Source: an uncultured Candidatus Saccharibacteria bacterium (GTDB lineage Bacteria > Patescibacteriota > JAQUNI01). From it: DNA of 64,000 nt. The position numbers and the translations under genes are program-made. Location of the stretch: assembly GCA_964555185.1 (NCBI GenBank), contig CAZKRD010000004.1, positions 755 through 64,754 of the forward strand, read 5' to 3'. The notes beneath the pieces were generated by a model that saw only the letters and a program-made list of their open reading frames with translations, made no database searches and had not been told where the DNA came from. Shown piece by piece: positions 6,050 to 62,668 of this stretch (position 1 is its first letter; every line of letters begins with the position of its first letter).

Positions 6050-6063
6050 GATTTACAATTATT

Positions 6064-6262
6064 CTAATTATACTAATTGTTCTAATTATTCTAAGAAATG
6101 ACCAAGCCCCAATGACCAAATTAATAGAATTATTCTAATTAACCTAATTATTCTAAACAAATCCCAATAACCAATGACCCAAAATTAATTTTATTTTTTG
6201 GGGTTTGGGACTTAGTCATTATTTAGAACAATTAGTATAATTAGAACAATTAGTATAATTTT
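6064..6262. mobile_element. MITE-like non-autonomous element with 18-bp terminal inverted repeats (attatactaattgttcta ... tagaacaattagtataat, the right TIR tandemly doubled). Internal ccaatgacc modules and a central imperfect palindrome
   Basis: The left TIR at ~6067-6084 is the exact reverse complement of tagaacaattagtataat at 6225-6242 and 6243-6260. Confidence 0.55.
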
Positions 6263-6270
6263 CTTCCCTT

Positions 6271-14038: not shown

Positions 14039-17000
14039 ATGTTTGCAAAAGTTAATCCCAGGCCCAATTTTCCAAAAATCGAAAAAAAGATTTTAGATTA
14101 TTGGGCGAAAAATAAAATATTTAAAAAAAGCGTAGACAAGAAAGCAAGCAAAGGCAACTACGTGTTTTTTGAGGGTCCGCCAACAGCAAATGGCAAACCC
14201 GGCGTGCATCATATAGAGGCGCGGGCTTTTAAGGATTTGTTTCCGCGCTATAAAACAATGCGAGGGCACAGGGTAGTAAGGAAAGCGGGCTGGGACACGC
14301 ACGGATTGCCGGTTGAATTGGAGGTTGAGAAGAATTTAGGGTTCTCGGGCAAGCGCGACATTGAGGAGTATGGGATCGAGAGGTTTAACAGGAAATGTAA
14401 AGTTTCAGTCTGGAAATACAAAGAGGATTGGGAAGAGATGACCCGCCGGATTGGTTTTTGGCTGGATATGGAAGATCCTTATGTTACTTTTGATAATGAT
14501 TATATTGAATCGGTTTGGTGGATAATAAAGCAGGTTTGGGATAAAGGATTGCTCTATCAGGGCCATAAGGTCGTCCCCTATTGTCCGCGGTGCGGAACCG
14601 CGCTTTCGAGCCATGAGGTGGCGCAGGGGTATAAGAAAGTGAAAGAGGAGAGCGTGTTCGTTAAGTTCAAAATCAAAGATCAAATCTCAAAAATCAAAAA
14701 TACAAATCAAAAGTCAAAAATTAAAATCACTTCGCGATTTTTGAATGGAAAAGAGGATGTTTATTTTTTAGCCTGGACCACGACGCCTTGGACTCTGCCA
14801 GGGAATTTGGCATTGGCTTTGGGGGAGGATATTGATTATGTTTTAGTAGAAGTAGGAGCAGGCCTTGTGCCTGCCCTGCATCGGAATGACGCAGAGCCTG
14901 CCCAGGGCGACCACAAGGGTCGCCCCTACAGAGAATGTTTCATTTTGGCCCGAGAGCGGTTGGAAATTTTAGAGGGGAAGTATAAGATAATTAAGGAATT
15001 TAAAGGTAAGGATTTGGCAGGGACCCCCTATGAGCCGTTGTATCCGGTTTTTAGCGGCGAAGAGAGCGAGCATATCTACCATTCTGTTTTGGCCGATTTT
15101 GTAACCACAGATGAGGGCACGGGGATTGTCCATACGGCTGTGATGTATGGGGAGGATGACTATCGGTTGGGAGAGAAGTTGGGGCTGCCGAAAAGACATA
15201 CAGTAAACTTACAAGGTAAATTCAAAGTCAAAAATCAACCTTCGAGTCCTGAGCCTCAGGTCGAGGGAAAGTCAAAAATAGAAGCTGCTTTGCAGCTTTT
15301 GAGAAAGATAGAGGGCAAATTTGTTAAGGATGCGGAGGGTGATATAGTTTCTGATTTAAAGAAGCGCGGATTGTTTTATAAATCCGAGATGTATGAACAT
15401 GATTATCCGTTCTGCTGGCGGTGCAAGACGCCGCTTTTATACTATGCGAAGAAGAGTTGGTTTATTGCGATGAGTAAATTGCGTAAAAAACTAAAGGAGA
15501 ATAATGAAGAAATTAATTGGGTTCCAGACTATCTCAAACACGGCCGTTTTGGTAAATGGCTGGAGGAGGTCAAGGATTGGGCTGTATCGAGGGAGAGGTA
15601 TTGGGGAACGCCGCTGCCGGTTTGGCAATGCCAAACTGGTAATTTCCAATTTCCAATTTCCAATTTCCAAACAAATTACAAATTACAAATTTCAAATTCC
15701 AGACAGTGTGGTAATGTTAGAGTTATTGGTTCTGTAAAAGAGTTAGAAAAATTGAGTAATAGGAAAATTGGGGATTTGCATCGGCCGGATATTGACAAGA
15801 TTAAGTTTAAATGTGAAAAATGCGGCGGGGAGATGAGGAGAGTATTGGAGGTAATTGATTGTTGGTTTGATGCGGGTTCAATGCCGTTTGCCCAGTATCA
15901 TTATCCATTTGAAAATAAGGCAAAGATAGACCGAGGAGAGCAGTACCCTGCTGATTTTATTTGCGAGGCAATCGACCAGACCCGAGGCTGGTTTTATACG
16001 CTTTTGGCGATTTCAACGCTCTTAGATAAGGGCACTTCTTATAAAAATGTGATTTCTTTGGGTCATGTTTTGGACGTTCGAGGCCAAAAAATGAGCAAAT
16101 CGCGTGGGAATGTGGTTGATCCTTTTAAAGCTTTAGAGCAATATAGCGCAGATGCTTTGCGCTGGTTTTTCTATACCGTGAATAAGCCGCAGGAATCAAA
16201 GAATTTTGACCCGCAGATTTTGCGCGATATTGTCTCGCGGTTTATTTTGACGCTGTGGAACTCGTATTCTTTTTTTGTGACGTATGCGAATATTGATAAA
16301 TTTGGTAGGGGCGACCCTAAGTGGTCGCCCGGCACGAGATTTTACAGAAGAGGGCGGCCACACGGGGCCGCCCCTACGGGGAATATTTTGGATAAGTGGA
16401 TTATTTCTAGATTAACAGGGTTGAACAAAAAAATTGTTCAATACTTGGATGATTACAATGTCTTGCGATCAGCCAAAGAGATTGAGAAGTTTGTTGACGA
16501 TTTATCCAATTGGTATATTAGGCGTTCACGCCGCAGGTTTTGGAAGAGCGAAGACGATCAGGATAAAACAGAAGGATATCAAACCTTGTATTTTGTGCTG
16601 GTCAATTTAAGCAAAATCTTAGCTCCTTTTATGCCCTTTGTTTCGGAAGAGATTTATCGCAACTTGACCGGAGACGATTCAGTGCATTTAGCCGCCTTTC
16701 CGGAAATAGATCAGAAATTATTTGATCAGAAGCTGAATCAGCAGATGGAATTTGTCCGTCAGGTTGTGGCTTCGGGCTTAAGCTTAAGGGCAAAGGCGGG
16801 GATTAAAGTTCGCCAGCCTTTAAGTAAATTCAAAGTGCAAAGTGCAAAGTGCCTGCCTTCGCCAAGGCTTCGGCAGGCAGGCAAAGTGACCGCAGGTCAT
16901 CTTGAGCGTCAGCCAAGGATCTCACCTCCTTTGTTAGAGTTGATTAAAGAAGAGCTGAATGTGAAGGAGGTTAAGTTTGTTTCTGGGCTTAAGAAGGCGA

Positions 17001-17338
17001 AAGGCTTCTTGACAGCAGAAGAGGGAGGAATTAAAGTTGGTTTGGATACGAAAGTTACTCCAGAATTAAAGCGCGAAGGGATGGCGCGCGATTTAGTCAG
17101 GGCGATTCAAGAGGCGCGCAAAAAAGCAGGCTTTCAGGTTTCAGATCGGATTGAATTGTTTGTAGAAAGAAAAGGTATGAAGTTCAATAAAGCGATTTCA
17201 GAGTGGGAAGAGTATATTAAGAAAGAGACTTTAGCAGTTAAGATTAGCGATCAGAAGGGTGATGTTGATTATAGTGAGATAGTGAAAATAGAGGGAGAAG
17301 AGGTTTGGGTAGGAGTAAAGAAGATTAAGTCAGATTAA
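14039..17338 (+). CDS. ileS: Isoleucine--tRNA ligase carrying about 6 in-frame repeat-element insertions
   Basis: Class I motifs P..ANG.PGVHH and KMSKSRGN, WTTTPWTLP, and a C-terminal Zn region. Insert coordinates are listed as separate repeat features. Confidence 0.9.
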   Translation: MFAKVNPRPNFPKIEKKILDYWAKNKIFKKSVDKKASKGNYVFFEGPPTANGKPGVHHIEARAFKDLFPRYKTMRGHRVVRKAGWDTHGLPVELEVEKNLGFSGKRDIEEYGIERFNRKCKVSVWKYKEDWEEMTRRIGFWLDMEDPYVTFDNDYIESVWWIIKQVWDKGLLYQGHKVVPYCPRCGTALSSHEVAQGYKKVKEESVFVKFKIKDQISKIKNTNQKSKIKITSRFLNGKEDVYFLAWTTTPWTLPGNLALALGEDIDYVLVEVGAGLVPALHRNDAEPAQGDHKGRPYRECFILARERLEILEGKYKIIKEFKGKDLAGTPYEPLYPVFSGEESEHIYHSVLADFVTTDEGTGIVHTAVMYGEDDYRLGEKLGLPKRHTVNLQGKFKVKNQPSSPEPQVEGKSKIEAALQLLRKIEGKFVKDAEGDIVSDLKKRGLFYKSEMYEHDYPFCWRCKTPLLYYAKKSWFIAMSKLRKKLKENNEEINWVPDYLKHGRFGKWLEEVKDWAVSRERYWGTPLPVWQCQTGNFQFPISNFQTNYKLQISNSRQCGNVRVIGSVKELEKLSNRKIGDLHRPDIDKIKFKCEKCGGEMRRVLEVIDCWFDAGSMPFAQYHYPFENKAKIDRGEQYPADFICEAIDQTRGWFYTLLAISTLLDKGTSYKNVISLGHVLDVRGQKMSKSRGNVVDPFKALEQYSADALRWFFYTVNKPQESKNFDPQILRDIVSRFILTLWNSYSFFVTYANIDKFGRGDPKWSPGTRFYRRGRPHGAAPTGNILDKWIISRLTGLNKKIVQYLDDYNVLRSAKEIEKFVDDLSNWYIRRSRRRFWKSEDDQDKTEGYQTLYFVLVNLSKILAPFMPFVSEEIYRNLTGDDSVHLAAFPEIDQKLFDQKLNQQMEFVRQVVASGLSLRAKAGIKVRQPLSKFKVQSAKCLPSPRLRQAGKVTAGHLERQPRISPPLLELIKEELNVKEVKFVSGLKKAKGFLTAEEGGIKVGLDTKVTPELKREGMARDLVRAIQEARKKAGFQVSDRIELFVERKGMKFNKAISEWEEYIKKETLAVKISDQKGDVDYSEIVKIEGEEVWVGVKKIKSD
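14668..14730 (+). repeat. In-frame AT-rich simple-sequence patch inside ileS (aaatcaaagatcaaatctcaaaaatcaaaaatacaaatcaaaagtcaaaaattaaaatcac, encoding KIKDQISKIKNTNQKSKIKIT)
   Basis: Same caaag/caaaa module family as the intergenic repeats. Codes a low-complexity K/I/N peptide between conserved IleRS blocks. Confidence 0.5.
14858..14930 (+). repeat. In-frame GC-rich insert inside ileS. It ends in a reverse-orientation REP palindrome gggcgaccacaagggtcgcccctac (14905-14929)
   Basis: 8-bp perfect stem gggcgacc/ggtcgccc plus a cccctac tail, which is the reverse complement of the gtaggggcgac head found in the RAYT gene. Confidence 0.6.
15218..15281 (+). repeat. In-frame hairpin mini-element inside ileS, flanked by the direct repeat aagtcaaaaat
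   Basis: caaagtcaaaaatcaacc-ttcgagtcctgagcctcaggtcgaggg-aaagtcaaaaatag. GC-rich palindromic core in an AT-rich gene, with an 11-bp flanking duplication. Confidence 0.5.
15641..15700 (+). repeat. In-frame heptamer microsatellite (ttccaat x4 followed by caaattacaaattacaaatttcaaattcc) inside ileS, encoding NFQFPISNFQTNYKLQISN
   Basis: The identical ttccaatttccaatttcc array also occurs in metG (28938-29003) and in the 55.06-55.14 kb palindrome. Confidence 0.65.
16352..16377 (+). repeat. In-frame REP-like palindrome inside ileS (gggcggccacacggggccgcccctac)
   Basis: Stem ggcggcc/ggccgcc plus a cccctac tail. Encodes RGRPHGAAPTG. Confidence 0.55.
16827..16890 (+). repeat. In-frame type-2 GC hairpin element inside ileS (caaagtgcaaagtgcaaagtg-cctgccttcgccaaggcttcggcaggcagg-caaagtgacc), flanked by the direct repeat gcaaagtg
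   Basis: Inverted ends cctgcc..ggcagg. The same core occurs in tgt (21617-21669) and at 57427-57470. Confidence 0.65.
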
Positions 17339-17339
17339 T

Positions 17340-17472
17340 TTTCAATTTTCAAGTACCAATTTACAATCAATTTTCAATAACCAATGATTAAATGTTCAAA
17401 CGGTTTGAAAATTTAATCATTTAAAATTATGATTTGATTGAAAATTGAGAATTGTAAATTGAAAATTAACCA
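17340..17472. repeat. AT-rich long imperfect palindrome (ttttcaa/ccaatga modules, centre caaacggtttg) filling the ileS-recO spacer
   Basis: The left arm ttttcaattttcaagtaccaatttacaatcaattttcaataaccaatgattaaatgttcaaac is approximately the reverse complement of the right arm. Confidence 0.75.
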
Positions 17473-18210
17473 ATGTATTTTTCGAAAAAAATAAAAGGGA
17501 TTGTGATTAAGCGAAGGAAGCACCAAGAGGCGGATTTGATTTTGACGATTTTTTCTGAAAGTTTAGGCAAGATTGAGGCGCGGGCCAGGGGATTGCGCAA
17601 GGCGAAAAGTAAAATGGCTGGCCAGTTGGAGCTTTTTAATCTAGTAAAAATAGAACTTCATCGCGGCAGGTTTTGGGATTTGATTATTGGCGCGGAAAGC
17701 ATTAATAATTTTTCTAACCTTAAAGCAAACCTTAAAAAATTGGTCCTTGCTCATTTTTTCGCGGAATTTGTTGACAAGTTTACGCCAGAAGGAGGGAAGG
17801 ATATCCGTTTTTACAATATTTTTCGGGATATTTTTTTGGATTTAGATCGTTTTTCAAAGAGGCGAGAGTATTTGAGAGCTTTTATTGGTGGCGAGGTTAG
17901 ACTTTTAAAACATTTAGGCCTCACTCCCTGTTTGGATCGGTGTCTCGGCTGCGGCGCTCTTCTTTCGGGCGGCCGTTTTAAATTGGGAGAAGGAGGGGTC
18001 TATTGCCCAAATTGCTCGACAGGGGTAAAGTACAGTGATTCGATTGACCAGAGGACACTTTCGTTTTTATCCCAAGAGACGCGAAGTCAGGCGCGAGAGG
18101 TCAAAGGCAATGAGCAGGATCTGAAGAAAGTCAGCTTGGCGCTGGCAGGATTCTTTGCCGCGGCCTGTCTTGAGAGGCCAAGGGCGCTTGAGTTTATTAA
18201 AAAGCTTTAA
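17473..18210 (+). CDS. recO: DNA repair protein RecO
   Basis: N-terminal OB-fold pattern (GIVIKRRKHQEADLILTIFSESLGKI) and a C-terminal CxxC...CxxC zinc finger. Confidence 0.7.
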   Translation: MYFSKKIKGIVIKRRKHQEADLILTIFSESLGKIEARARGLRKAKSKMAGQLELFNLVKIELHRGRFWDLIIGAESINNFSNLKANLKKLVLAHFFAEFVDKFTPEGGKDIRFYNIFRDIFLDLDRFSKRREYLRAFIGGEVRLLKHLGLTPCLDRCLGCGALLSGGRFKLGEGGVYCPNCSTGVKYSDSIDQRTLSFLSQETRSQAREVKGNEQDLKKVSLALAGFFAAACLERPRALEFIKKL

Positions 18211-18332
18211 TCAATTTTCAATAACCAATGAATAAATTTTCAAACAAAACCATTTTCGCAGGTTTGAAAATTAAATCATTGAACCTTCGGATTTGATTGA
18301 AAATTGAGATTTGTAAATTGAAAATTACCTTT
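18211..18332. repeat. AT-rich palindromic element, same family, with core ttttcaaacaaaaccattttcgcaggtttgaaaatt
   Basis: The core is the reverse complement of the core at 57200-57240, so the same element is present in both orientations. Confidence 0.75.
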
Positions 18333-20168
18333 ATGATCAACCTTGCCTACCCTAAAGTAGGGCCAAAGAGAAAGTCTTCGGGCAGGAAGCGCGGCATAAT
18401 TTTAGCGGTTTTAGTTTTAGTTTTTCTTTTTGGAGGAGCTTCTGGTTGGTATTTTTTTATTTTTCAAAAACAAGCGGATAATTTTACAGGCCAAGGGGTG
18501 GAAGTAAAAATCGAGGCGCCGGAGGAGGTGATTTCCGGCTCTTCTTATCAATACACGATTGAATACGTTAATAACGAAAAGGTGGCGCTTGAGAATGCCT
18601 CGCTTGTCCTTTATTTCCCCTCCGGTTTTAATTTTACTGATTCTTTACCAGAGCCGGATTCAAAGGGAGAGAGCGAAGAGGCCAATGTCGCTTTTAAGGT
18701 TCAGGGCGATTCCTCTTCCCGTACCTGGGATTTGGGAAGACTGGATCAGGGGGAGCGGGGAATAATTAAGTTTAAAGGGATTATTTTGGGGGATTTGGGT
18801 TCAACCAACGCTTTGAGTGCGCATTTGAGCTACCAGCCGGAGAATTTCAGCTCCAGTTTTTCAGCAGAAGGCGGGACTAGCGTGTTGGTTAAAAAATCGC
18901 TGGTTGATTTTGATTTAGAACTGCCCGAGAAGACAGGAAAGGGGAGAGAGGTTGAGATCGCGGTTTTATACCGTAATATCACCTCGGAAGATTTAGAGAA
19001 TGTGCGGATTATCCTGAATTATCCAGAAGGATTTTCTTTTATCTCATCAGAACCAAGAGCAGATCGCGAGGATCGGGTTTGGGATTTTCGAGTTTTGCGG
19101 CGCGGCGAGCGGGGGCGGATTGATCTTAAGGGGAAGATAGATTCGGGAGAGTCTTTAGCTGCCTTTAGCGCAGAGCTTGGGGTTGTGGATCAGTATAAGC
19201 AGTTTTTCAGCCAAGTCAAGCAGGAGAAGAAGATGATTGTTTTAAACCCCTTATTGGAAATAACCGCTACGATTAACGGCGAGGAGGAGACGAAGATCAA
19301 TCCCGGCGATGAGCTTAGATTTATCTTTACTTATGCTAATCTTGGGGATGTCAGGATTGAGGATGGAACAATCAACTTCTCTATGGAAACAGGGCTTTTG
19401 GATACCAGTTCAATCTCGATTTTAGAAGGTCATTATGATGCTAACGAATTCACTTGGGATGCCGGCTCTTCCTTGGGCTTGGCGAGGGTGGAACCGGGGG
19501 AAAAGGGCAGGGTAGAATTTGGAGCTCAACTTTTACCTGTTTTCCCCTATTCCTCTTTGGATAAGCGGAACTTGGAACTCTCGGGCAAAGCGCGTTTTGA
19601 AAGCAATAGTGTTGACGGACTCCGAGGGTTTGATTTTGAGACCGAGAGCAATGAATTGAGAGCGAAAATCAACACCGAGCTTGATTTGGTTTCGGAAGCG
19701 CGATATTTTGACCTTGATTATGAACAGGCAGGTTCAGGCCCTCTGCCGCCTAAAGTGGGGCAAAAAACCATTTATCGTATTTATTGGACGCTTTCTAACA
19801 CGACTAATGACGCGGAGAATGTTCAAATTAAAACTATCCTGCCGGAAGGGGTGGCTTTCGGGGAGGATTTTTTCTCTTCTTTTGGCAATGAATTAGAGTA
19901 TGATCCGGAGACAAGAGCCGTGATTTGGGATTTGGGCAGGGTGCAGGCCTATGCCGGCAGTGTTTTGGCAGGCGCGCGGGCTTGGTTTGAGGTTGGTGTG
20001 ATCCCGACCGCGGACCAGGTAGGCCAAACTCCGCCATTAACGGAAGAGATTTTTGTTTCGGGACAGGATTTGTTTACCGAAGCCAGAATTGAGAATGAAC
20101 ATCCGAGTTTAAATACAGAATTGACTAATGATTTGGGAGCATTGGGGAAAGGGGAGGTGGTGAAGTAA
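18333..20168 (+). CDS. DUF11 (conserved repeat domain) membrane-anchored protein. The ORF-track start at 18297 lies inside the palindromic repeat, so the ATG at 18333 is preferred
   Basis: N-terminal TM helix followed by about 4 repeats of the pattern ..Y.i...N.g...a.nv.i....P.G..f....p......W.lG.l..Ge.g.i...g. Confidence 0.6.
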   Translation: MINLAYPKVGPKRKSSGRKRGIILAVLVLVFLFGGASGWYFFIFQKQADNFTGQGVEVKIEAPEEVISGSSYQYTIEYVNNEKVALENASLVLYFPSGFNFTDSLPEPDSKGESEEANVAFKVQGDSSSRTWDLGRLDQGERGIIKFKGIILGDLGSTNALSAHLSYQPENFSSSFSAEGGTSVLVKKSLVDFDLELPEKTGKGREVEIAVLYRNITSEDLENVRIILNYPEGFSFISSEPRADREDRVWDFRVLRRGERGRIDLKGKIDSGESLAAFSAELGVVDQYKQFFSQVKQEKKMIVLNPLLEITATINGEEETKINPGDELRFIFTYANLGDVRIEDGTINFSMETGLLDTSSISILEGHYDANEFTWDAGSSLGLARVEPGEKGRVEFGAQLLPVFPYSSLDKRNLELSGKARFESNSVDGLRGFDFETESNELRAKINTELDLVSEARYFDLDYEQAGSGPLPPKVGQKTIYRIYWTLSNTTNDAENVQIKTILPEGVAFGEDFFSSFGNELEYDPETRAVIWDLGRVQAYAGSVLAGARAWFEVGVIPTADQVGQTPPLTEEIFVSGQDLFTEARIENEHPSLNTELTNDLGALGKGEVVK

Positions 20169-20214
20169 TTTTCAATTTTCAATTTTCGAATTTTCAATCA
20201 ATTTTCAATACTCA

Positions 20215-20574
20215 ATGACAAAATTTTCAAACAATAAATTTGACCTTGAGGAAAGAACAGCTAAGTTTGCTGAAAATATTATTGATTTAGTAAGAAGTAT
20301 TAAAAAAGATGATGTTAATCGCCGTATTATTAGCCAAGTAGTTAGCTCTGGAGGTTCATTGGGCGCTAATTACTGCGAGGCCAATGAGGCAGAAAGCAGA
20401 AAAGATTTTGTTCATAAAATAGGTATTTGCAAAAAAGAAACAAAAGAAGTTAAACATTGGCTCCGCTTATTAGCCAGAAGCAACCCAGAGAAAAAAGATA
20501 GAATTAGATTGTTATGGCAGGAAGCCCACGAATTATTATTAATCTTTTCCAAGATTAGAAGATCGTGTGTGTAA
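20215..20574 (+). CDS. Four-helix-bundle protein (TIGR02436 / 23S rRNA intervening-sequence protein family)
   Basis: SSGGSLGANYCEANEAESRKDFVHKIGICKKETKEVKHWLRL matches the family hallmark S..aNi.Eg..r.s..df..f..ia.gS..E. Confidence 0.7.
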   Translation: MTKFSNNKFDLEERTAKFAENIIDLVRSIKKDDVNRRIISQVVSSGGSLGANYCEANEAESRKDFVHKIGICKKETKEVKHWLRLLARSNPEKKDRIRLLWQEAHELLLIFSKIRRSCV

Positions 20575-21901
<1,327 letters not shown>

Positions 21902-21957: not shown

Positions 21958-23262
21958 ATGAATAAAATTGAAAAAATCACCTCGCTTGCTAAGCGACGGG
22001 GCTTTATTTTTCAGTCCTCGGAGATTTATGGCGGCATTTCTGGCGTTTATGATTATGGGTCGCTGGGTGTGGAGCTTAAGAATAATATTAAAAGATTGTG
22101 GTGGAAGAATATTGTGGGAACCCGAGAGAATGTGGTGGGCTTAGACGCGGCAATCGTGATGCCTCCCAAGGTCTGGGTTGCGTCGGGACACTTGGAGCAT
22201 TTTGTTGATCCGCTTCGTGAATGCAAGAAATGCCGCAAGCGCTTTAGGTCTGATGACTTGAAGAGCAAGAAGAAGTGTCCAGAATGCGGCGGGCTTTTGG
22301 GGCGTGAGCGGACATTTAATATTCTTGTGGAAACCCATCTGGGGCCAGTAAAAGACACTGCGAATCTTGCTTATCTGCGCGGAGAGACAGCGCAGGGAAT
22401 TTTTGTTAATTTTGAGAATGTCAGGGATTCGATGCGCCAGAAGATCCCATTTGGGATTGCCCAGATTGGCAAGGCGTTTCGCAATGAAATCACGCCCGGC
22501 AATTTTATTTTCCGCTTGCGGGAGTTTGAACAAATGGAATTGGAGTATTTCATTGAGCCGGGCAGCCAAAAGAAATGGTTTGACCATTGGAAGCGTGAAC
22601 GGATGGATTGGTATCTCTCTTTAGGTATTGCTCGAGAGAGCCTTCGTTTTTACAAACACAAGAAGAATGAGTTGGCCCATTACGCGGATATGTGTGAGGA
22701 CATAGAATACAAATTTCCCTGGGGCTGGGGGGAATTGGAGGGAATCGCCTCGCGCCGCGATTATGATTTAAAGCAGCACAGCCAGATTTCCGGCAAAGAC
22801 CTTTCCTATTTTGACGAAAAAAAGAATAAGAAGTATATTCCTTTCGTGATTGAGCCGTCAGCCGGTGTTGATCGCCTCGCGCTTGTGCTTTTACTAGATA
22901 GTTATCACGAAGAAGAAGTAAAGGGCCAAAAGCGAGTGGTGATGCGTTTTGACAAGGAACTTGCGCCAGTCAAGGTTGCGGTTCTGCCGCTTCTTAGAAA
23001 CAAAAAAGAATTGACCAAAAAAGCGCGAGAGGTCTATCAGATGCTTTCTGATCAGTTTTTGATTATCTATGACGAGGCCGGTTCGATCGGCCGCCGCTAT
23101 CGCAGGCAGGATGAGATAGGAACCCCTTATTGCGTTACAATTGATTTTGAAAGCCTGGAAGATCAGGCAGTGACTGTTCGGGATCGGGATAGTATGGGGC
23201 AGGAGAGGATAGGGATCAAAGAGTTAGTGGTGTTTTTAGGCGATAGACTAAAAAGGAATTAA
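21958..23262 (+). CDS. glyQS: Glycine--tRNA ligase (class II, alpha2 type)
   Basis: N-terminus IFQSSEIYGGISGVYDYGSLG and an insertion-domain CxxC..CxxC. Confidence 0.85.
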   Translation: MNKIEKITSLAKRRGFIFQSSEIYGGISGVYDYGSLGVELKNNIKRLWWKNIVGTRENVVGLDAAIVMPPKVWVASGHLEHFVDPLRECKKCRKRFRSDDLKSKKKCPECGGLLGRERTFNILVETHLGPVKDTANLAYLRGETAQGIFVNFENVRDSMRQKIPFGIAQIGKAFRNEITPGNFIFRLREFEQMELEYFIEPGSQKKWFDHWKRERMDWYLSLGIARESLRFYKHKKNELAHYADMCEDIEYKFPWGWGELEGIASRRDYDLKQHSQISGKDLSYFDEKKNKKYIPFVIEPSAGVDRLALVLLLDSYHEEEVKGQKRVVMRFDKELAPVKVAVLPLLRNKKELTKKAREVYQMLSDQFLIIYDEAGSIGRRYRRQDEIGTPYCVTIDFESLEDQAVTVRDRDSMGQERIGIKELVVFLGDRLKRN

Positions 23263-23376
23263 AAATTCAAAATTCAAAATTCAAAGTTACAGTTTCAAGT
23301 TTAAAGTTTTTAAATTCACAATTTTTAACTTTGAATTTAACTTTGGACTTTGTACTTTGGACTTTGTACTAAAATT
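23263..23376. repeat. Palindromic simple-sequence element (aaattcaaa tandem on one arm, aactttgNact tandem on the other) abutting the next start codon
   Basis: aaaattcaaaattcaaaattcaaagttacagtttcaagtttaaagttttt / aaattcacaatttttaactttgaatttaactttggactttgtactttggactttgtact. Confidence 0.7.
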
Positions 23377-24315: not shown

Positions 24316-24449
24316 ATTCAGAAATCCAAAGTCTAAAACCCAAATGTCAAATCAAAACTAAATGACAAATATCAAATTCTTGGATTTTGGAATTGATTTG
24401 GCATTCGTCTCGCCTGTCGGGAGGCAGGGATTTTGAAATTTGAAATTAA

Positions 24450-26781: not shown

Positions 26782-26847
26782 CGAATTAACGGATTAAAGG
26801 ATTAATTTTTAAATTCGTAATCCGTTAATTCGGTAATCCGTCAAATT
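26782..26847. repeat. Short palindrome cgaattaacggattaaaggattaatttttaaattcgtaatccgttaattcg
   Basis: Read directly from the sequence. Confidence 0.6.
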
Positions 26848-27534
26848 GTGTTGTATATCATCGCTACTCCCATTGGTAATTTGGAGGATTTAAGCTTGCG
26901 GGCTCTGCGGGTGTTGCGCGGGGTGGATTTGATTTTGTGTGAAGACACGCGGACTACAGGGAAGCTAGTAAAGCACTATCAAATCAAGACACGTCTTTTA
27001 AGCTATCATACTCATTCAGGCGAGAAACGGACGAGCCGCATTTTGAATTTATTGAAAGAGGGCAAGGATTTAGCCCTGGTTACTGATTCGGGCACACCTG
27101 GGATCTCTGACCCCGGCGCAAGATTGATCGGCCAGTTGGTCTCCGAAGATCCCGAGGCGGAGATTTTTTGTGTTCCCGGGCCTTCTGCTTTGACTGCTGC
27201 TGCTTCTCTTTCTGCTTTTCCGACCAATCGATTTTTATTTTTAGGATTCTTGCCGCGCAAAAAAGGAAGAAAAAAATTATTAGAGTCACTGCCGCAAACC
27301 AAGGGGACCATCATTTTTTACGAGTCCCCTTATCGGATTAAAAAAACCCTCAAAGAATTGCAGGGAATTTTGCAAAATCGGCCAATTGAAGTTTTTCGGG
27401 AATTAACTAAAAAATTTGAAACAATTTACCGCGGTCAGGCCAAAGAGGTTTTGGCGAATCTGCCGGATAAAGTGCGGGGAGAGATTGTGGTCATTATTGG
27501 ACCGTCCTTTTTGACCCGAGAGAACAAATCTTGA
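26848..27534 (+). CDS. rsmI: 16S rRNA (cytidine1402-2'-O)-methyltransferase
   Basis: IATPIGNLEDLSLRAL..DLILCEDTR and TDSGTPGISDPG. Confidence 0.85.
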   Translation: MLYIIATPIGNLEDLSLRALRVLRGVDLILCEDTRTTGKLVKHYQIKTRLLSYHTHSGEKRTSRILNLLKEGKDLALVTDSGTPGISDPGARLIGQLVSEDPEAEIFCVPGPSALTAAASLSAFPTNRFLFLGFLPRKKGRKKLLESLPQTKGTIIFYESPYRIKKTLKELQGILQNRPIEVFRELTKKFETIYRGQAKEVLANLPDKVRGEIVVIIGPSFLTRENKS

Positions 27535-27855: not shown

Positions 27856-29277
27856 TTGAAATCTGTGTCAACAGAGAAGAAATTTTATATCACCACCCCG
27901 ATTTATTATGTCAATGATAAACCGCATGCCGGCCACGCTTACACCACGATTGCAGCGGATGTTTTAGCGCGCTGGCATAGAATCCAAGGAAAGGATGTTT
28001 TCTTTTTGACTGGGACGGATGAGCATGGAGCGAAAGTAGCAGAAGCAGCAAGCGTGGCTGGTAGAAAACCAAAAGAATTTTGTGATCAAATCGCAGGCAA
28101 GTTTAAGCAGGCCTGGCAAAACCTGAATATTGATTATGACTATTTTATTCGCACTACTGATCCCAAACACCAAAAGGGAGTTATTGATTTTTTGACTCGG
28201 CTAAAAAAGGAAGGTTATCTGTATGAAAAGGATTACTCCGGATTATACTGCGTTGGTTGTGAGAAGTTTATTACGGAAAAGGAATTAGTAGGCGGGAAAT
28301 GTCCAGACCACGGCCAGGTGCCGGAACAAGTCACGGAAAAGAACTGGTTTTTTAAACTCAAGGAATTTTTGCCTCGGGTGAAAAAAAAGATATCAAAAGG
28401 TGAACTCAAGATTGAGCCAGAGAGCGCTCTCGGGGAGACGATGGGACTCTTGAAGCAAGACTTAGATGACTTTTCTGTTTCGCGCCAGAGAGTAGATTGG
28501 GGGATTAAACTCCCCTGGGATCAGAAACAGAGTATCTACGTTTGGATAGACGCGCTGTTGAATTATTGGACCGCGGTAAAAGAAGCGGGGCGCGGGAAAT
28601 ATTGGCCGCCGGATTTGCATTTGATTGGCAAGGATATTTTGAAATTTCACGCTGTCTTCTGGCCGGCAATGCTGCTCGCGGCAGGCGAAGATTTGCTGCC
28701 TCGCCAGATTTTTGTCCATGGTTACTTCACGATCAATGGCCAGAAGATGTCCAAGACCCTGGGTAATGTGATTGACCCCAATGACCTGGTAAAGAAATAC
28801 GGCGCGGACGCAACCCGCTATTTGCTCTTGAGCCAATTTCCTTTTGGGAGCGATGGAGATATATCCCTTGCGAAATTAACCACAACCTATAATGCGGATT
28901 TAGCGAACGGTTTAGGGAACTTGGTGGCCAGAGTAATAAATTTCCAATTTCCAATTTCCAATTTCCAAATAAATCCCAATTTCCAATTTCCAAACTCCAA
29001 ACTTCGTAAATATAATGATTTAATGAAAGAATTAAAGTTGTTTGAGGTAGTAAAGTTTATTAGAGAGAAGATTAAAGAGTGCAATAATCTTATTGAAAAA
29101 GAGAAACCCTGGGAAATAAAAGAAAGGAATAAATTAGAGAAAATTATTGATCCGATTCTTTTGAAAATTATTACTGTCGCTGAAATGATTCGGCCTTTTA
29201 TGCCGGATACGTATAATAAGATTCAGAGGATACTGAAAACAGGAAAGAAAGAGATATTGTTTCCGAGGGTAAAATAA
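27856..29277 (+). CDS. metG: Methionine--tRNA ligase with an in-frame repeat insertion
   Basis: PIYYVNDKPHAGHAYTTIAADVLARW (HIGH-type) and KMSKTLGN. Confidence 0.9.
   Translation: MKSVSTEKKFYITTPIYYVNDKPHAGHAYTTIAADVLARWHRIQGKDVFFLTGTDEHGAKVAEAASVAGRKPKEFCDQIAGKFKQAWQNLNIDYDYFIRTTDPKHQKGVIDFLTRLKKEGYLYEKDYSGLYCVGCEKFITEKELVGGKCPDHGQVPEQVTEKNWFFKLKEFLPRVKKKISKGELKIEPESALGETMGLLKQDLDDFSVSRQRVDWGIKLPWDQKQSIYVWIDALLNYWTAVKEAGRGKYWPPDLHLIGKDILKFHAVFWPAMLLAAGEDLLPRQIFVHGYFTINGQKMSKTLGNVIDPNDLVKKYGADATRYLLLSQFPFGSDGDISLAKLTTTYNADLANGLGNLVARVINFQFPISNFQINPNFQFPNSKLRKYNDLMKELKLFEVVKFIREKIKECNNLIEKEKPWEIKERNKLEKIIDPILLKIITVAEMIRPFMPDTYNKIQRILKTGKKEILFPRVK
28938..29003 (+). repeat. In-frame ttccaat-heptamer array inside metG, encoding INFQFPISNFQINPNFQFPNSKL
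   Basis: Same array as ileS 15641-15700. It sits right after the conserved GNLVAR block. Confidence 0.65.
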
Positions 29278-29307
29278 CTTTTAACTTTGCACTTTGCACT
29301 TTAAACT
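29278..29307 (+). promoter_or_regulatory. actttgcact tandem motif (cttttaactttgcactttgcactttaaact) directly abutting the tatD ATG, with no Shine-Dalgarno sequence
   Basis: Same motif family lies upstream of hisS (58160-58206) and the Nif3-like gene (23330-23376). It is present as the reverse complement inside ileS (16827-16850). Confidence 0.3.
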
Positions 29308-30093: not shown

Positions 30094-30693
30094 ATGCAGA
30101 AGTCGCAACATCACCGAAGATCGATTAGGTTGCCGACGTATGATTATTCGCTACCGGGACATTATTTTGTGACGATTTGTTCTTATCAATGGCAGGAAAT
30201 ATTCGGGGAGATTGCTGTAGGGGCGACCCGTGGGTCGCCCGTGATGGCTTTGAATAAATACGGTGAAATTGTTCGTAATATTTGGCATACAATTCCGGAT
30301 CACCACCCCGTTGCTTTAGACGCGTTTCAAATGATGCCTAACCATATACATTTTATCATTCAACTATTGGGCAATCGTTCGGGCGGGTCACGACCCGCCC
30401 CTACGCTGGGTATTGTTGTCGGTCTATTTAAATCCGAATGCACAAAACAGATCAGACGGGCTATGGGCGATGCTAACAAAATTATTTGGCAGCGCAACTA
30501 TTACGAACACATCATCAAAACCGAAGAGTCCCTAAACCAAACCCGCGAATACATAGTTAAAAATCTAATCAGCTGGGAATTTGATTGCAACAATCCACTT
30601 AACATTTATGGAAAAATACAATCCTCAAAAAATCGAACCCAAGTGGCAAAAACAGTGGGAGAAGGAGGGCTTGAACCGGGCCCGGGATTTTAG
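30094..30693 (+). CDS. IS200/IS605-family Y1 HUH transposase of the REP-associated tyrosine transposase (RAYT)-like type. Its 3' end overlaps the leuS start
   Basis: HUH motif MPNHIHFIIQ and catalytic Tyr region IWQRNYYEHIIKTEESLNQTREYIVKN. Two REP palindromes lie inside the CDS at 30217-30240 and 30381-30404. Confidence 0.7.
   Translation: MQKSQHHRRSIRLPTYDYSLPGHYFVTICSYQWQEIFGEIAVGATRGSPVMALNKYGEIVRNIWHTIPDHHPVALDAFQMMPNHIHFIIQLLGNRSGGSRPAPTLGIVVGLFKSECTKQIRRAMGDANKIIWQRNYYEHIIKTEESLNQTREYIVKNLISWEFDCNNPLNIYGKIQSSKNRTQVAKTVGEGGLEPGPGF
30217..30240 (+). repeat. REP palindrome gtaggggcgacccgtgggtcgccc inside the RAYT gene, forward orientation
   Basis: 9-bp stem ggggcgacc/ggtcgcccc. Confidence 0.75.
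30381..30404 (+). repeat. REP palindrome gggcgggtcacgacccgcccctac inside the RAYT gene, inverted orientation. With 30217-30240 it forms a REPIN-like inverted pair
   Basis: Stem gcgggtc/gacccgc plus a cccctac tail. Confidence 0.7.
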
Positions 30694-33657: not shown

Positions 33658-33692
33658 TTGACAAGATTTCTAGAAGGTTTATAATGTAGAAG
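33658..33692 (+). promoter_or_regulatory. Sigma70-like promoter TTGACA-17-ATAATG/TATAAT for the TrmB-like gene
   Basis: cttgacaagatttctagaaggtttataatgtag. Confidence 0.5.
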
Positions 33693-34543: not shown

Positions 34544-34578
34544 TGGGGTCCCCGAAAAATCGAAGATTTTATGGGGTA
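34544..34578 (+). promoter_or_regulatory. 35-nt double-dyad motif tggggtccccgaaaaatcgaagattttatggggta upstream of glmS. Copy 2 is at 54811-54845
   Basis: 33/35 identity between the two copies. Contains the ggggtcccc palindrome and the aaaatc-gaa-gatttt inverted repeat. Confidence 0.5.
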
Positions 34579-40423: not shown

Positions 40424-40539
40424 GAATTAATTTTCAATTTTCAAACTAAGACTTAGGTAATTTTTTTAAAAATTAGTTATTGGAAATCCCACTTCGCGAG
40501 GCGAGTATTTGGAAATTGGTCATTGGAAATTAAAGAAAC

Positions 40540-41196: not shown

Positions 41197-41256
41197 AAAA
41201 AGCCTCTATTAAATCCTTCTTTTTACATTTTGAATTTTCATTTTGCATTTTGACAT

Positions 41257-45072: not shown

Positions 45073-45104
45073 AGATATATCTTAATATATCTTAATATAT
45101 CTTA
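45067..45104. repeat. Tandem repeat atatatcttaat x3 abutting the 5' end of the rsmI paralog
   Basis: gatatatcttaatatatcttaatatatcttac. A related atatcttaatatcttac run lies at 57361-57390. Confidence 0.6.
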
Positions 45105-46422: not shown

Positions 46423-47190
46423 ATGGCGCAAATCATTGCTTTGGTTAATCAAAAAGGAGGCGTGGGCAAGACCACAACCGCGGTTAATCTTGCTTCTTAT
46501 TTAGCTGATTTTGGCAAGAAGATTTTATTTTGCGATTTAGACCCGCAAGGCAATGCCACTTCGGGCTTAGGGATTAATAAGAAAGGGCTAAAACAAAACA
46601 TTTATGATGTTTTGTGCGGGCGGGCGGCTTTGTCCGATATTCTATATCAAAGCTCCTCTCCCGATATGCATATTGCGCCCGCCTCTTCTGATCTGGCTGG
46701 CGCTTCGATCGAATTGGTCTCTGTGCCCGAGCGCGAGTTTTTGTTAAAGAAATTTTTAGAGCCGGCAAAGCAAGACTACGACTATATCATTATTGATTCC
46801 CCTCCTTCTTTGGGAATTTTAACGATCAATGCCCTGACCGCTTGCCAGAGTGTTATGATTCCAGTCCAGTGTGAGTATTATGCCCTGGAAGGACTTTCTG
46901 AACTTCTTTACACCATTGATCTTGTCCAAAAGAACCTAAATCCTGATTTGAATATCTTGGGCATTGTTTTAACGATGCGGGATCGGAAAACGCGGATTGC
47001 CGCTGATGTGGTCTGCGAGGTCCAAAGGAACTTTCCGGACAAGGTTTTTGAGACAATCATTCCCCGTAATGTGAGATTGGCGGAAGCCCCGAGCTTTGGC
47101 CAGGCGATTTTAAACTACGAGCCGATGTGCAAGGGCGCGCGTGCTTACAAGCACCTGACAGAGGAGGTTATGGAGATGGGGGGAGAATAA
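46423..47190 (+). CDS. parA: Chromosome partitioning ATPase ParA/Soj
   Basis: Deviant Walker A KGGVGKTT. Confidence 0.9.
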   Translation: MAQIIALVNQKGGVGKTTTAVNLASYLADFGKKILFCDLDPQGNATSGLGINKKGLKQNIYDVLCGRAALSDILYQSSSPDMHIAPASSDLAGASIELVSVPEREFLLKKFLEPAKQDYDYIIIDSPPSLGILTINALTACQSVMIPVQCEYYALEGLSELLYTIDLVQKNLNPDLNILGIVLTMRDRKTRIAADVVCEVQRNFPDKVFETIIPRNVRLAEAPSFGQAILNYEPMCKGARAYKHLTEEVMEMGGE

Positions 47191-47349
47191 TTCTTAATTC
47201 TTAATTCTTAATTTTTATTGAATTTTTAATGACCTAATTTTTAATTTTTAAACATCCTATTATTCCAAATTTATCTTGTTTAAAAATTAAATCATTAAAA
47301 ATTAAACATTGATTAAGAATTTAAAATTTAAAATTATAAATTCAAATTT
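47191..47349. repeat. AT-rich palindromic spacer (ttcttaatt x3 followed by aatttttaatgacctaatttttaattttt ... aaaaattaaatcattaaaaattaaacattgattaagaatt)
   Basis: Inverted arms read directly. Confidence 0.65.
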
Positions 47350-54810: not shown

Positions 54811-54845
54811 TGGGGTCCCCGGAAAATCGAAGATTTTTTGGGGTA
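54811..54845 (+). promoter_or_regulatory. Second copy of the 35-nt double-dyad motif (tggggtccccggaaaatcgaagattttttggggta), immediately followed by TTGACA-17-TAAGCT
   Basis: 33/35 identity to 34544-34578. Confidence 0.5.
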
Positions 54846-54884: not shown

Positions 54885-55060
54885 GATTTGCCGCTATATC
54901 GGGAATTATATATTCTTTACTATCCCGCTTGCAAGTGGTGAAAGTAGAAAGCCAATCCCTCCTTAGACTTTTTACGAGTAACTGTCAACATAAAGTTCGG
55001 GTCCTCGTGACTTTCTGAATTTTAGACTTACAAGTGGGATAGTGGAGGATATTTTTTTTA
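54885..55060 (+). ncRNA. Candidate structured small RNA in the pth-mfd spacer. A 16-bp long-range helix (tatcccgcttgcaagt / acttacaagtgggata) encloses ~95 nt and is followed by ggaggat and a T8 tract
   Basis: Helix and U-tract read directly. It does not match RNase P, SRP or tmRNA cores. Confidence 0.25.
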
Positions 55061-55061
55061 A

Positions 55062-55143
55062 TTTCCAATGACCAATTTCCAATTTTCAAATAACAAGAAG
55101 CTTGGTTATTGATTGGAAATTGGGATTTGGAAATTGAAAATTA
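55062..55143. repeat. Perfect palindrome centred on aagctt (ttccaatgaccaatttccaattttcaaataacaag-aagctt-ggttattgattggaaattgggatttggaaattgaaaatt). The pth stop codon lies at its centre, and the right arm encodes the pth C-terminus ELIFNFQIPISNQ
   Basis: Reverse-complement check. The pth stop is at 55106-55108. Confidence 0.8.
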
Positions 55144-55645
55144 ACTCCCCCAGGGCTTCCTGGGTTGTTTTTTTTATTTTAATTTTTTCGTTGAAGGGCA
55201 GTTTTTGGAGAACAAATTTCTCGGTTGGTATCCTGCTTGGGGTTTCGGGCTTGATTCCTATCCGCAGGCGGTGAAAGGCGTGGGTGCCCAGCGAGTCTAT
55301 AATCGATTGGACGCCCTTATGCCCGGCAGAGCTTATGTTTTTTTGAATTTTGAATTTACCTGAACTGATGTCAATGTCGTCGTGGATTACCCAGAGGTTT
55401 TCCGGTTTCAGTTTATAGAAGTTGACCAGGGCAGCGACACTTTGGCCGGAGTTGTTCATATAGGTTTGGGGTTTTGCTAGAATCAGGTTATCTTTTTTAG
55501 AGATTTTGGCTTTAAATTTTTTTCGGACCGTAAAAGCAGGGAAGTCTAATTTTTTTTTGAGCGCCTGGACTACAAAAAAACCGACATTATGTCGACTCGC
55601 TTTGTATTTTCCCCCAGGGTTGCCAAGTCCTACGATTAAGTCCAT
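55106..55645 (-). CDS. pth: Peptidyl-tRNA hydrolase, starting at MDLIVGLGNPG. The C-terminal tail derives from the palindromic repeat
   Basis: GLGNPG..Y..TRHN(V)GF N-terminal motif. Confidence 0.85.
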   Translation of the reverse strand: MDLIVGLGNPGGKYKASRHNVGFFVVQALKKKLDFPAFTVRKKFKAKISKKDNLILAKPQTYMNNSGQSVAALVNFYKLKPENLWVIHDDIDISSGKFKIQKNISSAGHKGVQSIIDSLGTHAFHRLRIGIKPETPSRIPTEKFVLQKLPFNEKIKIKKTTQEALGELIFNFQIPISNQ

Positions 55646-57122: not shown

Positions 57123-57350
57123 ACACCAAAGATTTGAATTACCAATTTACATAATTACCAATTTACAAGTACCAATTTTCAATCAAATCCCAATTTTCAA
57201 TGATTTAATTTTCAAACCTGCGAAAATTGTTTTGTTTGAAAATTTATTCATTGGTTATTGAAAATTGGTACTTGTAAATTGAAAATTGATTAGTACATTG
57301 GTACTTGAAAATTGAAAATTGATTAGTACATTGGTACTTGAAAATATTGT
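57123..57350. repeat. Large AT-rich palindromic element (centre ttttcaaacctgcgaaaattgttttgtttgaaaat, the reverse-orientation copy of 18215-18290) plus a tandem duplication of gattagtacattggtacttgaaaattgaaaatt
   Basis: Direct comparison with 18211-18332 and with 20720-20750. Confidence 0.8.
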
Positions 57351-58155: not shown

Positions 58156-58206
58156 AAATTTTAATTATAACTTTGAACTTTGAACTTTTAACTTTGCACT
58201 AAACTC

Positions 58207-62230: not shown

Positions 62231-62668
62231 AACTTGTAACCTGTAGCTTGTAACCTGTAACCCAAGAGAAAGAATATGGAGAGAAAAAACAGGTTTCATC
62301 GCGATTTAAAGTTGTTAATGGACGGGTTTGTTAATAAGGTTTACGATTATACTCAAAATTTTCCTAAAGAAGAACGGTTTGGTGTTACTTCTCAATTACG
62401 CAGAGCAGCCTTGTCAGTAATTTTGAATTATATTGAGGGTTACGCTAGGCAAAGGAAAGCTGTTTTAAGAAACTTTCTAGAGATTTCTTACGGTTCCTTA
62501 AAAGAAGCAAAGTACCTTATTTATTTTTCATATAAAAGAAGATATCTTAAATTGAAAGAATCTAAAGAACTGTTAGAGCTTACGGAGAAGATTGGGGCAA
62601 TGCTCTGGGGGATTATTTCAAAACTCGTAACTTGAGTTACAAGTTACAGGTTACAAATTACAAGTATA
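62231..62668. repeat. Inverted repeats bracketing the second four-helix-bundle gene (ttgtaacctgtagcttgtaacctgtaaccc at 62231-62262, and gttacaagttacaggttacaaattacaag at 62637-62668)
   Basis: gttacaggttacaa is the reverse complement of ttgtaacctgtaac. Confidence 0.6.
62276..62635 (+). CDS. Four-helix-bundle protein (TIGR02436 family), second copy
   Basis: FPKEERFGVTSQLRRAALSVILNYIEGYARQRKAVLRNFLEISYGSLKEAKYLIY. Confidence 0.7.
   Translation: MERKNRFHRDLKLLMDGFVNKVYDYTQNFPKEERFGVTSQLRRAALSVILNYIEGYARQRKAVLRNFLEISYGSLKEAKYLIYFSYKRRYLKLKESKELLELTEKIGAMLWGIISKLVT

Follow-up and report, generated by a model that had tools for sequence, protein, structure and literature searches.

AT-rich palindromes in the operons of a Patescibacteria genome, best read as intervening-sequence-type hairpin cassettes and miniature derivatives

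The DNA analyzed here (the window) is a 64-kb stretch of a 706,972-bp metagenome scaffold (ENA ERZ23486238, BAEC19-1 scaffold_1) from an uncultured Candidatus Saccharibacteria bacterium, whose relatives among the contigs fetched for comparison are Patescibacteria (candidate phyla radiation, CPR) genomes. The genome is compact, with mostly co-directional genes that include those for IleRS, RecO, a DUF11 protein, tgt, other tRNA synthetases, parAB, topA, dprA, mfd, pth, and ybeY. Several of the spacers between these genes hold AT-rich imperfect palindromes with arms of degenerate tandem heptamers, and at two sites a short gene of family PF05635, the four-helix-bundle "23S rRNA intervening-sequence protein" (also S23p or Avd-like; IVP hereafter), is set between such arms. 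In its full form this cassette comprises a left degenerate heptamer array, a PF05635 gene of ~120 codons, and, on the right, an array reverse-complementary to the left one. The elements of the window are best read as hairpin cassettes of the intervening-sequence (IVS) type and their derivatives, the latter resembling MITEs (miniature inverted-repeat transposable elements), located in operons instead of rRNA genes.

The palindromes that carry no gene (solo elements) are 115-215 nt long and non-coding, with 6-7 copies in the 64 kb and more in contigs L004, L010, L011, and L092, and have the terminal inverted repeats TAATTTTCAATTTTCAA ... TTGAAAATTGAAAATTA in common. Their folds as RNA were scored against dinucleotide shuffles. 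Copy 1 (17336..17469; z = -6.1) occupies the IleRS/RecO spacer and consists of arm A (17336-17401) and arm B' (17402-17469), with an apex of TTCAAAC-GG-TTTGAA; 17335-17401 pairs with 17403-17469 at 79%. The pairing begins at the U of the IleRS UAA stop codon and ends 4 nt before the RecO ATG, and the copy is 97% identical to the same spacer in the sister contig L004, whose RecO is 89% identical and which is syntenic with the window over 14 kb. In copy 2 (18208..18327; z = -3.0), found in the spacer between RecO and the DUF11 gene, the left arm is shortened, the apex carries an insert of 17 nt (18246-18262), and the right arm contains the substitution CCTTCGG; neither insert is present in L004. 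Copy 3 (20589..20750; z = -3.2), in the IVP1/tgt spacer, has its arms in the order B-A', inverted with respect to copy 1, and includes a 33-nt tandem module at 20682-20749. Copy 4 (57137..57350; z = -10.8), in the divergent LytR/signal-peptidase spacer, belongs to the copy 2 subfamily, apex insert included, in the opposite orientation, and has 25 uninterrupted perfect pairs as well as the 33-nt module in 2.5 copies (57264-57345). A variant palindrome with AATTTCC units is found at the 3' end of pth on the minus strand (55055..55147; z = -5.6), where the mechanically called pth open reading frame (ORF) extends ~38 nt into its right arm, and a degenerate relative at 40424..40539 has TTTTCAA ... 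TTGGAAA arms around a GC mini-hairpin (z = -0.9, a fold not above shuffles). Public gene calls start the DUF11 gene (18297) and tgt (20741) at TTG codons inside the right arms of palindromes; judged against L004, the true starts are ATG 18333 and ATG 20759, respectively.

Palindromic repeats had been placed at these sites by a preliminary description of the window, and they are present there. Each element is palindromic on its own and copies lie at distant loci, in agreement with the dispersed family of imperfect palindromes that had been proposed, and both orientations are found, with 18212-18327 being 92% complementary to 57152-57267 over 116 nt; 17334-17418 and 20642-20726 are likewise 94% complementary over 85 nt. 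The expected folding holds for nine of 10 elements, which beat dinucleotide shuffles (z of -3.0 to -10.8), but is not significant for 40424-40539. A core described as an exact reverse complement at two distant loci is indeed complementary, but at 25/26 bases, at 18241-18266 versus 57213-57238, some 9 nt away from the register first given. The 26-nt module GATTAGTACATTGGTACTTGAAAATT is exact at 20724 and 57288, whereas its third copy, at 57321, has one mismatch. That the family fills nearly every intergenic spacer was too strong a statement: among the 35 spacers of the window longer than 25 nt, classified by reading, the TTTTCAA/CCAATGA family accounts for 6-7, and heptamer-built tracts of any sequence for ~17. 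The 17339 element recurs unchanged in two independent Logan short-read assemblies, each of which breaks within the 18211 element, as expected of a real dispersed repeat; thus, the elements are not an artefact of assembly.

Two spacer pairs of the window are not simple palindromes, each bracketing a 119-codon gene (20215-20574 and 62276-62635). Both ORFs score above the curated cutoffs for PF05635 (33.8 bits) and TIGR02436 (24 bits). IVP1 (20215..20574, plus strand; 119 aa) reaches 54 and 73 bits, respectively, with 2RLD as its PDB relative, and has relatives of 70-89% identity in other contigs. Its arm A (20166..20232, plus strand) contributes 63 nt that are 79% complementary to 20659-20721 (flank z of 14.3 versus shuffles), and the ATG within the CAATGA module serves as its start codon, codons 1-6 (MTKFSN) being arm sequence. 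IVP2 (62276..62635, plus strand; 119 aa) lies between the gene for a TSP3-repeat protein and ybeY and reaches 95.8 and 97 bits, with 2GSC as its PDB relative and up to 75% amino acid identity to proteins in differently named Patescibacteria candidate groups. Its left arm (62231..62262, plus strand) is built of CTTGTAA/CCTGTAA heptamers and its right arm (62636..62665, plus strand) of GTTACAA/GTTACAG heptamers, the inverse of 62231-62262, giving a flank z of 11.7.

The relationship between the solo palindromes and the cassettes is revealed by contig L096, where an IVP gene 83% identical to IVP1 is found with the same arm arrangement as in the window. The left arm there consists of TTTTCAAGTACCAATTTCCAATGAATTTTCAATTTACAA followed by ATGACTCAATTTTCAAAC, which is the first six codons of the gene, and the right arm ends ...GATTTGATTGAAAATTGGTACTTGAAAATTGAAAATTA. 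The solo element at 17339-17472 is 86% identical to the left flank over 57 nt, including the first six codons and extending up to TTCAAAC, and 80% identical to the right flank over 87 nt. As both solo arms align to the flanks of an IVP gene, the apex TTCAAAC-GG-TTTGAA marks the place where the ORF is missing, and the solo palindromes appear to be ORF-less, MITE-like derivatives of the cassette. It is therefore probable, on balance, that the AT-rich palindromes are ORF-less, MITE-like members of the IVS-type hairpin cassette family with their arms joined at TTCAAAC-NN-GTTTGAA. Solo copies at different loci share this one junction, so the gene-less form has most likely spread as such.

A second relative of IVP1, 89% identical and located on contig L092, has the same arms in an unrelated genomic context, with an Avd-like gene adjacent. 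Within L092:1-927 the Avd-like gene (119-451) and two near-repeats lie upstream of the IVP1-like gene. The near-repeats, ...AATACTCCCACGAATACGAACACGAACATTGGGTTCCGTTGCGTCAG versus TACTCCCGCGAGTACGGGCACGTACATTGGGTTCCGTTGTGTCAG, differ mainly at adenines and look like the template/variable repeat pair of a diversity-generating retroelement.

The solo hairpins have recently been copied to unlinked sites in both orientations, and solos and cassettes alike have been replaced episodically at fixed spacers. Copy 3, which precedes tgt, matches two copies from another metagenome assembly: one between rpsE and rplO on contig L010, at 99.3% identity over 140 nt, and one on contig L011a, upstream of the gene for a glycosyltransferase, at 100% over 113 nt. 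The subfamily with the diagnostic 17-nt apex insert occupies three loci in both orientations. Variation between relatives in presence and content, the lack of which would by the preliminary description have counted against the family, was found. In the more distant relatives L005-L009 (RecO 69% identical to that of the window), the spacers on either side of recO are 27 and 25 nt long and element-free. Spacers of the window and L004 are either 97-98% or only 29-59% identical, and some in L004 carry a different heptamer family, whereas coding DNA is mostly 83-95% identical (NIF3 77%, the IVP gene 59%). At the DUF11/tgt site both genomes have an IVP gene, with proteins only 45% identical and different arms; since relatives of IVP1 with 70-89% identity exist elsewhere, this points to replacement of the cassette at a fixed site and not to ordinary divergence. 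The sequence family itself is narrow, because the element core, scanned for as an exact pattern, matched nothing in GTDB species genomes and only two contigs in Joint Genome Institute (JGI) metagenomes. Candidates for the copying agent are the IVP acting on its own heptamer arrays, recombination between the arms, and a RAYT-like enzyme encoded in the window (see below). The ORF of the cassette with which the solo shares both arms is PF05635, for which we know of no transposase activity.

The design of a gene between inverted heptamer arrays recurs across phyla. Eighty loci with IVP relatives, yielding 75 testable genes, were fetched from GTDB species genomes, mostly of Patescibacteria and also of Omnitrophota, Planctomycetota, Margulisiibacteriota, and Bacteroidota. 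Flanking inverted repeats with z > 5 were found for 49/75 IVP genes compared with 7/110 neighbouring genes, and the top-scoring of the latter directly abut an IVP arm. The arms match themselves at 0.49 at a lag of 7 nt and 0.45 at 14 nt, against ~0.27 at other lags, with a heptamer unit that varies by locus (CTTATAA, CATGTAG, CACATAT, CCATAAC, CAGCCAT, GGGGCTG/CCCCAGT, and others). The IVP gene is co-oriented with its upstream neighbour at 42/48 loci and its downstream neighbour at 40/47, and the median gaps of 41 and 33 nt are approximately the length of an arm. Outside this set, an S23 gene on a Calothrix brevissima plasmid is located between GGGTGTA and ACACCCT arrays (z of 14.4) and one on Nostoc punctiforme pNPUN02 between CAGGAGT-type arrays. 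In Xanthomonas, Stenotrophomonas, and Dyella (L100-L107), a PF05635 gene of the XCC0516 family (PDB code 2GSC) is found between accB and accC with z of 12-15. There, GGGAATCGGGAGTGGAGAATCGGGAATCGG forms the left arm and CCCATTCCCCATTCCCGACTCCCTATTCCC the right arm, which stops precisely at the accC ATG; 99/120 arm positions pair across the genera, and one change, from G-C to A-T, is compensatory. The literature searches turned up no paper that ties PF05635 genes to heptamer arrays in general.

Among the closest known counterparts is the rRNA IVS of Coxiella, Leptospira, and others, in which a long stem of terminal inverted repeats encloses a PF05635 ORF that is optional, some versions being ORF-less, variable numbers of tandem heptamers lie beside the ORF, and the insertion sits in a transcribed unit whose two sides must stay functional (PMC4990558). 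In Coxiella the 28-bp terminal inverted-repeat stem is cut by RNase III and encloses the S23p ORF, with 2-3 tandem heptamers adjoining it (PMC4990558), and other papers have reported IVP genes from insertions in the 16S and 23S rRNA of CPR and from between cmr3 and cmr2. The window shares the inverted-repeat stem around an optional PF05635 ORF, as the flank z-scores of 14.3 and 11.7 indicate. It differs in that the host is a protein-coding operon, the arms are heptamer arrays of 30-100 nt, and the ORF-less form is a dispersed family; the copies are placed between or within protein genes rather than in a 23S or 16S rRNA helix, and the window contains no rRNA. The solo elements are also short, non-coding, and multi-copy with terminal inverted repeats, as MITEs are. 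The Correia elements of Neisseria (CREE), the ERIC/IRU of enterobacteria, and the mycobacterial MIRUs are co-transcribed repeats of 100-200 bp that are non-coding and multi-copy, have terminal inverted repeats, and occur in both orientations; Correia hairpins are substrates of RNase III, and MIRUs are intercistronic and overlap stop and start codons. The window elements resemble them in size class, copy number, inverted ends, lack of coding capacity, and use of both orientations, and differ in having heptamer arms, no visible target-site duplication, and an ORF-bearing parent that encodes a four-helix-bundle protein rather than a known transposase.

Heptamer arrays described elsewhere are similar in layout. 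Xanthomonas genomes contain 70-75 convergent inverted pairs of GGGAATC arrays each (Rehm et al. 2015; PMC4692102), which are likewise intergenic inverted pairs of tandem heptamers and bracket the XCC0516-family gene, a link to S23/IVP genes that PMC4692102 does not make. These arrays are G-rich, have been studied as quadruplex formers, and are unrelated in sequence to the AT-rich arms. The TAACTGA arrays of Beggiatoaceae, Cyanobacteria, and Bacteroidetes (PMC4679880) and the cyanobacterial short tandemly repeated repetitive (STRR) sequences are also spacer-borne tandem heptamers that often end just upstream of start codons. Arrays of the STRR type flank the S23/four-helix-bundle genes of the Calothrix and Nostoc plasmids. 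Both kinds have been described mainly as direct repeats, and neither the hairpin layout nor the IVP link was reported in the literature found. The STRR heptamers were reportedly described by Mazel et al. in 1990.

The elements are intercistronic and occupy housekeeping operons, where they begin at the stop codon of the gene upstream and reach to within 1-15 nt of the following start, and in eight of 12 stop-to-start spacers the outermost predicted pair runs from the U of the UAA to 1-15 nt before the start codon. Sites include parA/parB in the window and L18-S5-[element]-L15 (rpsE/rplO) in L010, units that are normally co-transcribed. It appears feasible that the arms would pair within the polycistronic transcript, from the stop codon to a position a few nucleotides short of the following start, and would thereby loop out the insertion and bring stop and start codons side by side, such that the host operon would still work. 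This would parallel the way in which the stem of an IVS holds the two halves of a 23S rRNA together, and by the same analogy the long A-U duplex would probably be cut by RNase III, as rRNA IVSs and Correia hairpins are. With up to 25 consecutive pairs, the stems have sufficient length for such cleavage; the window contains no rnc gene. A rule by which the 5' arm would be C-rich and the 3' arm G-rich is true in the window but was rejected, as the count is 13 versus 10 across 40 independent cassettes.

Several points weigh against this interpretation. The stem mismatches have no wobble bias on the sense strand, 48 cassettes having 64 G·U versus 65 A·C and 17 solo elements 34 versus 44, leaving selection for pairing at the RNA level unsupported in these lineages; complementarity may instead be kept at the DNA level. 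No recognized transposase shares the ends of the elements. A target-site duplication is not definable, either from filled sites compared with the empty L005 spacers or at an in-frame site in IleRS (see below), because the terminal TA is palindromic and part of the inverted repeat; the comparison of filled and empty (L005) sites has no alignable junction, and the region upstream of IleRS is entirely different in the window and L004, so that no filled/empty pair exists there. The Xanthomonadales cassette is stable across three genera, old, and vertically inherited, and thus mobility or selfishness need not be a property of every IVS-type cassette. The relationship between solo and cassette could have arisen in either direction, through loss of the ORF by a cassette or through its acquisition at a hairpin apex. 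Finally, the shuffles behind the inverted-repeat scores keep mononucleotide composition only, and the account rests on 64 kb of a 707-kb genome.

The arms of the elements are degenerate tandem heptamers (AATTTTC, AATTTCC, ACAAATT, AACTTTG, and AACCTGT, for example), and strict period-7 tracts cover 454 nt, or 4.6% of the intergenic and 0.37% of the coding DNA of the window, whereas the same test at periods 4-6, 11, and 12 gave zero coverage in the window. The head-to-tail 7-nt units and their concentration in spacers are those of STRR-type tandem heptamer arrays. Other hairpins in the window are formed from different units. A 160-nt palindrome of TAATTCT/TTTTTAA heptamers fills the parA/parB spacer (47188..47349; z = -6.6), and a palindrome between two giant surface-protein genes (6050..6270; hairpin score of 41 points) has 9-mer arms (AATTATTCT) and CCAATGACC modules. 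The hairpin at 23254..23376 (z = -3.6) has AAATTCA/AACTTTG heptamer arms, and the matching L004 spacer, 47% identical, holds a TTTTCAA-type arm instead. In the NIF3/M16 spacer, AAATC/CAAAT-type arms are combined with a nested GC hairpin (24316..24449; z = -3.4), and a short hairpin with period-8 arms (AATTAACG / TAATCCGT) lies in the AI-2E/TP_methylase (rsmI-like) spacer (26782..26847; z = -6.4). Single-arm tracts occur as well: an AACTTTG tract on the plus strand fills the MetRS/TatD spacer (29274..29307), and others are located at 41217-41270 and 58165-58200. The ATTTTGA tract at 41217-41279 lies upstream of the gene for an MFS transporter and contains an 11/12 σ70-like match (TTGACA-18-TATCAT); in this one case the array may supply a promoter.

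Heptamer tracts are also found in frame. A 63-nt tract on the plus strand (15637..15703; AATTTCC four times and more) adds nine units of 7 nt, equal to 21 codons, to the Cys knuckle of IleRS, which it splits, and is absent from the more distant relative L005. Others are located in IleRS (14663-14726 and 16825-16853), MetRS (28936-29005), and LeuRS (31301-31363), those of IleRS and MetRS being 86% identical to each other. Rickettsia palindromic elements are repeat DNA of this kind, in frame in essential genes; the pieces in IleRS, MetRS, and LeuRS are similarly placed, and differ in being single arms instead of whole palindromes.

A gene for a RAYT-like transposase of the Y1/HUH type is located between tatD and leuS (30094-30693, plus strand). 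Its product matches NCBIfam NF047646, "REP-associated tyrosine transposase" (RAYT; REP, repetitive extragenic palindrome), with an E value of 3e-18 and 66 bits, below the equivalog cutoff of 80, and Pfam Y1_Tnp with 30 bits, and contains HIHFII, the HUH motif, as well as the motif WQRNYYEH. A GC-rich hairpin, GGGCGACC...GGTCGCCC, lies within the gene at 30221-30240. Two GC-rich doublets resembling REPINs (paired REP hairpins), with the order GTAGG-hairpin-spacer-hairpin-CCTAC, are found in frame in IleRS at 14852-14929 and 16305-16377; the first encodes ...VGAGLVPALHRNDAEPAQGDHKGRPYR... and is absent from L004 and L005. An insert in IleRS at ~16853-16890 (SAKCLPSPRLRQAGK) is specific to the window.

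As dispersed hairpin repeats accompanied by a RAYT-like gene, the window elements resemble REP/REPIN-RAYT systems, and could have been moved as single-stranded DNA hairpins by this enzyme, with the link to IVP being incidental. Y1 enzymes do act on DNA hairpins, and the lack of an excess of G·U over A·C mismatches would suit a hairpin formed at the DNA level. The AT-rich elements, however, have neither the GTAG/CTAC head nor the 20-40-nt GC-rich form of a REP, being 3-5 times longer, and the RAYT-like gene adjoins tatD and leuS and is flanked by none of the AT-rich elements, for which reasons identity with REPs was rejected. Its NCBIfam score is below cutoff, and the array-bracketed PF05635 genes of many phyla would remain unexplained. 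The RAYT-like enzyme fits better with the GC-rich GTAGG...CCTAC doublets, a separate family much closer to REPINs, and mobilization of the AT-rich family by it is considered unlikely.

The elements could also be heptamer simple-sequence repeats that originated at their present sites through slippage during replication and local inverted duplication, their likeness arising from convergence or gene conversion without transposition. Heptamer repeats of this type are over-represented in bacteria (PMC4692102), heptamer number and sequence vary here between loci and sister genomes, single-arm tracts occur, and no target-site duplication was found. Slippage alone, however, makes no matched inverted arrays around one gene family, nor would it be expected to produce copies of 113-140 nt with non-repetitive loops and a 17-nt apex insert that are 92-100% identical at unlinked sites in both orientations, or to leave related IVP genes accompanied by the arms in different genomic settings. 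We consequently give this explanation little credence.

Comparably small is the probability that the arrays are primarily binding sites for a protein, whether the pentameric IVP, a cold-shock/S1-type RNA binder, or a nucleoid protein, with the hairpin being secondary. In favour of it, cassettes keep strictly to a 7-nt register yet vary freely in the sequence of the unit, the arms track the IVP clade (CTTGTAA-type with IVP2-like and TTTTCAA-type with IVP1-like genes), and GGGAATC arms are kept across three genera; CspB, moreover, binds one heptamer per monomer according to work cited in PMC4679880. Such binding is putative, and the similarity between arms and ORFs could reflect simple co-inheritance, whereas binding of single-stranded RNA needs no inverted symmetry of both arms. 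This explanation overlaps with the hairpin-cassette reading and does not exclude it.

Least probable, and by a long way improbable in itself, is the proposal of the preliminary description that the palindromes are transcription signals, bidirectional terminators or promoters, for the flanking genes, since the elements lie inside the normally co-transcribed parA/parB and L18-S5/L15 units, and their AT-rich stems have no U-tract. Long hairpins can pause RNA polymerase and the Correia elements of Neisseria supply promoters, but an intrinsic (Rho-independent) terminator, with its GC-rich stem followed by a U-tract, was rejected for these A-U rich stems, none of which was called terminator-like in the scan. 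The promoter matches are weak (9-10/12) and not conserved between copies; that in the right arm at 17405-17433 (TTGAAA-17-TATGAT, 10/12, σ70-like), for example, is lost in the copies at 18261 and in L096. Consensus signals are instead found in element-free spacers, with a perfect promoter at 33658-33685 (TTGACA-16-TATAAT) and, by eye, a canonical-looking terminator hairpin near 43750 that the scan did not call, and in the 20-kb co-directional gene string that holds the elements a scan found no intergenic consensus promoter on the plus strand. Nor do the elements replace promoters, given their intercistronic location. As for the Shine-Dalgarno context that they were also said to replace, RecO and the DUF11 gene have no obvious site by eye, but tgt has AAGG in its 8-nt gap.

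Two further types of dispersed structure were considered for the elements and rejected. Integron attC sites would have outer ends of RYYYAAC/GTTRRRY, which TAATTTTC / GAAAATTA are not; the flanking genes are housekeeping genes, and no integrase was found in Pfam scans of the window. CRISPR was rejected on sequence features. At the gathering threshold Rfam recognized only a tRNA-Leu in the window. Among other repeats, a 26-nt motif, GGGGTCCCCG(A/G)AAAATCGAAGATTTT, occurs upstream of glmS (34545-34570) and downstream of mfd (54812-54837), two unrelated spacers where the chance expectation is zero, and matches no Rfam family. The 10-mer ATATATCTTA is present as three direct repeats in the spacer at 45075-45104, and related ATATCTTA-type repeats (57350-57389) adjoin the palindrome at 57137-57350; these may constitute a regulator binding site. 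A diverged inverted paralogue pair is formed by two TP_methylase (rsmI-like) genes, one at 26848-27534 and the other, on the opposite strand, at 44389-45009, with stretches of 74-84% identity at 27040-27117/44803-44880 and 27391-27434/44468-44511.

In practical terms, the repeats break short-read assemblies and mislead gene callers, which place TTG starts within them and extend mechanical ORFs through stop-free heptamers. PF05635 is a very large family, with more than 7,600 relatives of one query at E ≤ 1e-10. To our knowledge, structures have been solved with no known function except for the distant relative Avd in diversity-generating retroelements, and reports of tandem heptamer arrays, which go back to 1990, have come with no mechanism. 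The window joins the two through its gene-less palindromes, through a design shared by Patescibacteria, cyanobacteria, and Xanthomonas, and through cassettes in essential operons that remain unbroken. It is possible, although we advance this tentatively, that PF05635 genes and inverted heptamer arrays together form a widespread and so far unrecognized class of element inside rRNA genes and operons, that its ORF-less derivatives are the source of otherwise unexplained bacterial heptamer arrays (STRR, the GGGAATC arrays of Xanthomonas, TAACTGA, and the Patescibacteria palindromes), and that the pentameric IVP is a trans-acting factor that recognizes the 7-nt register and serves to copy, maintain, or process the arrays. 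Such a model would address the nature of IVS elements, the tolerance of rRNA genes and operons to their insertion, and the origin of heptamer arrays, for all of which accB/XCC0516/accC in Xanthomonas provides a culturable case.

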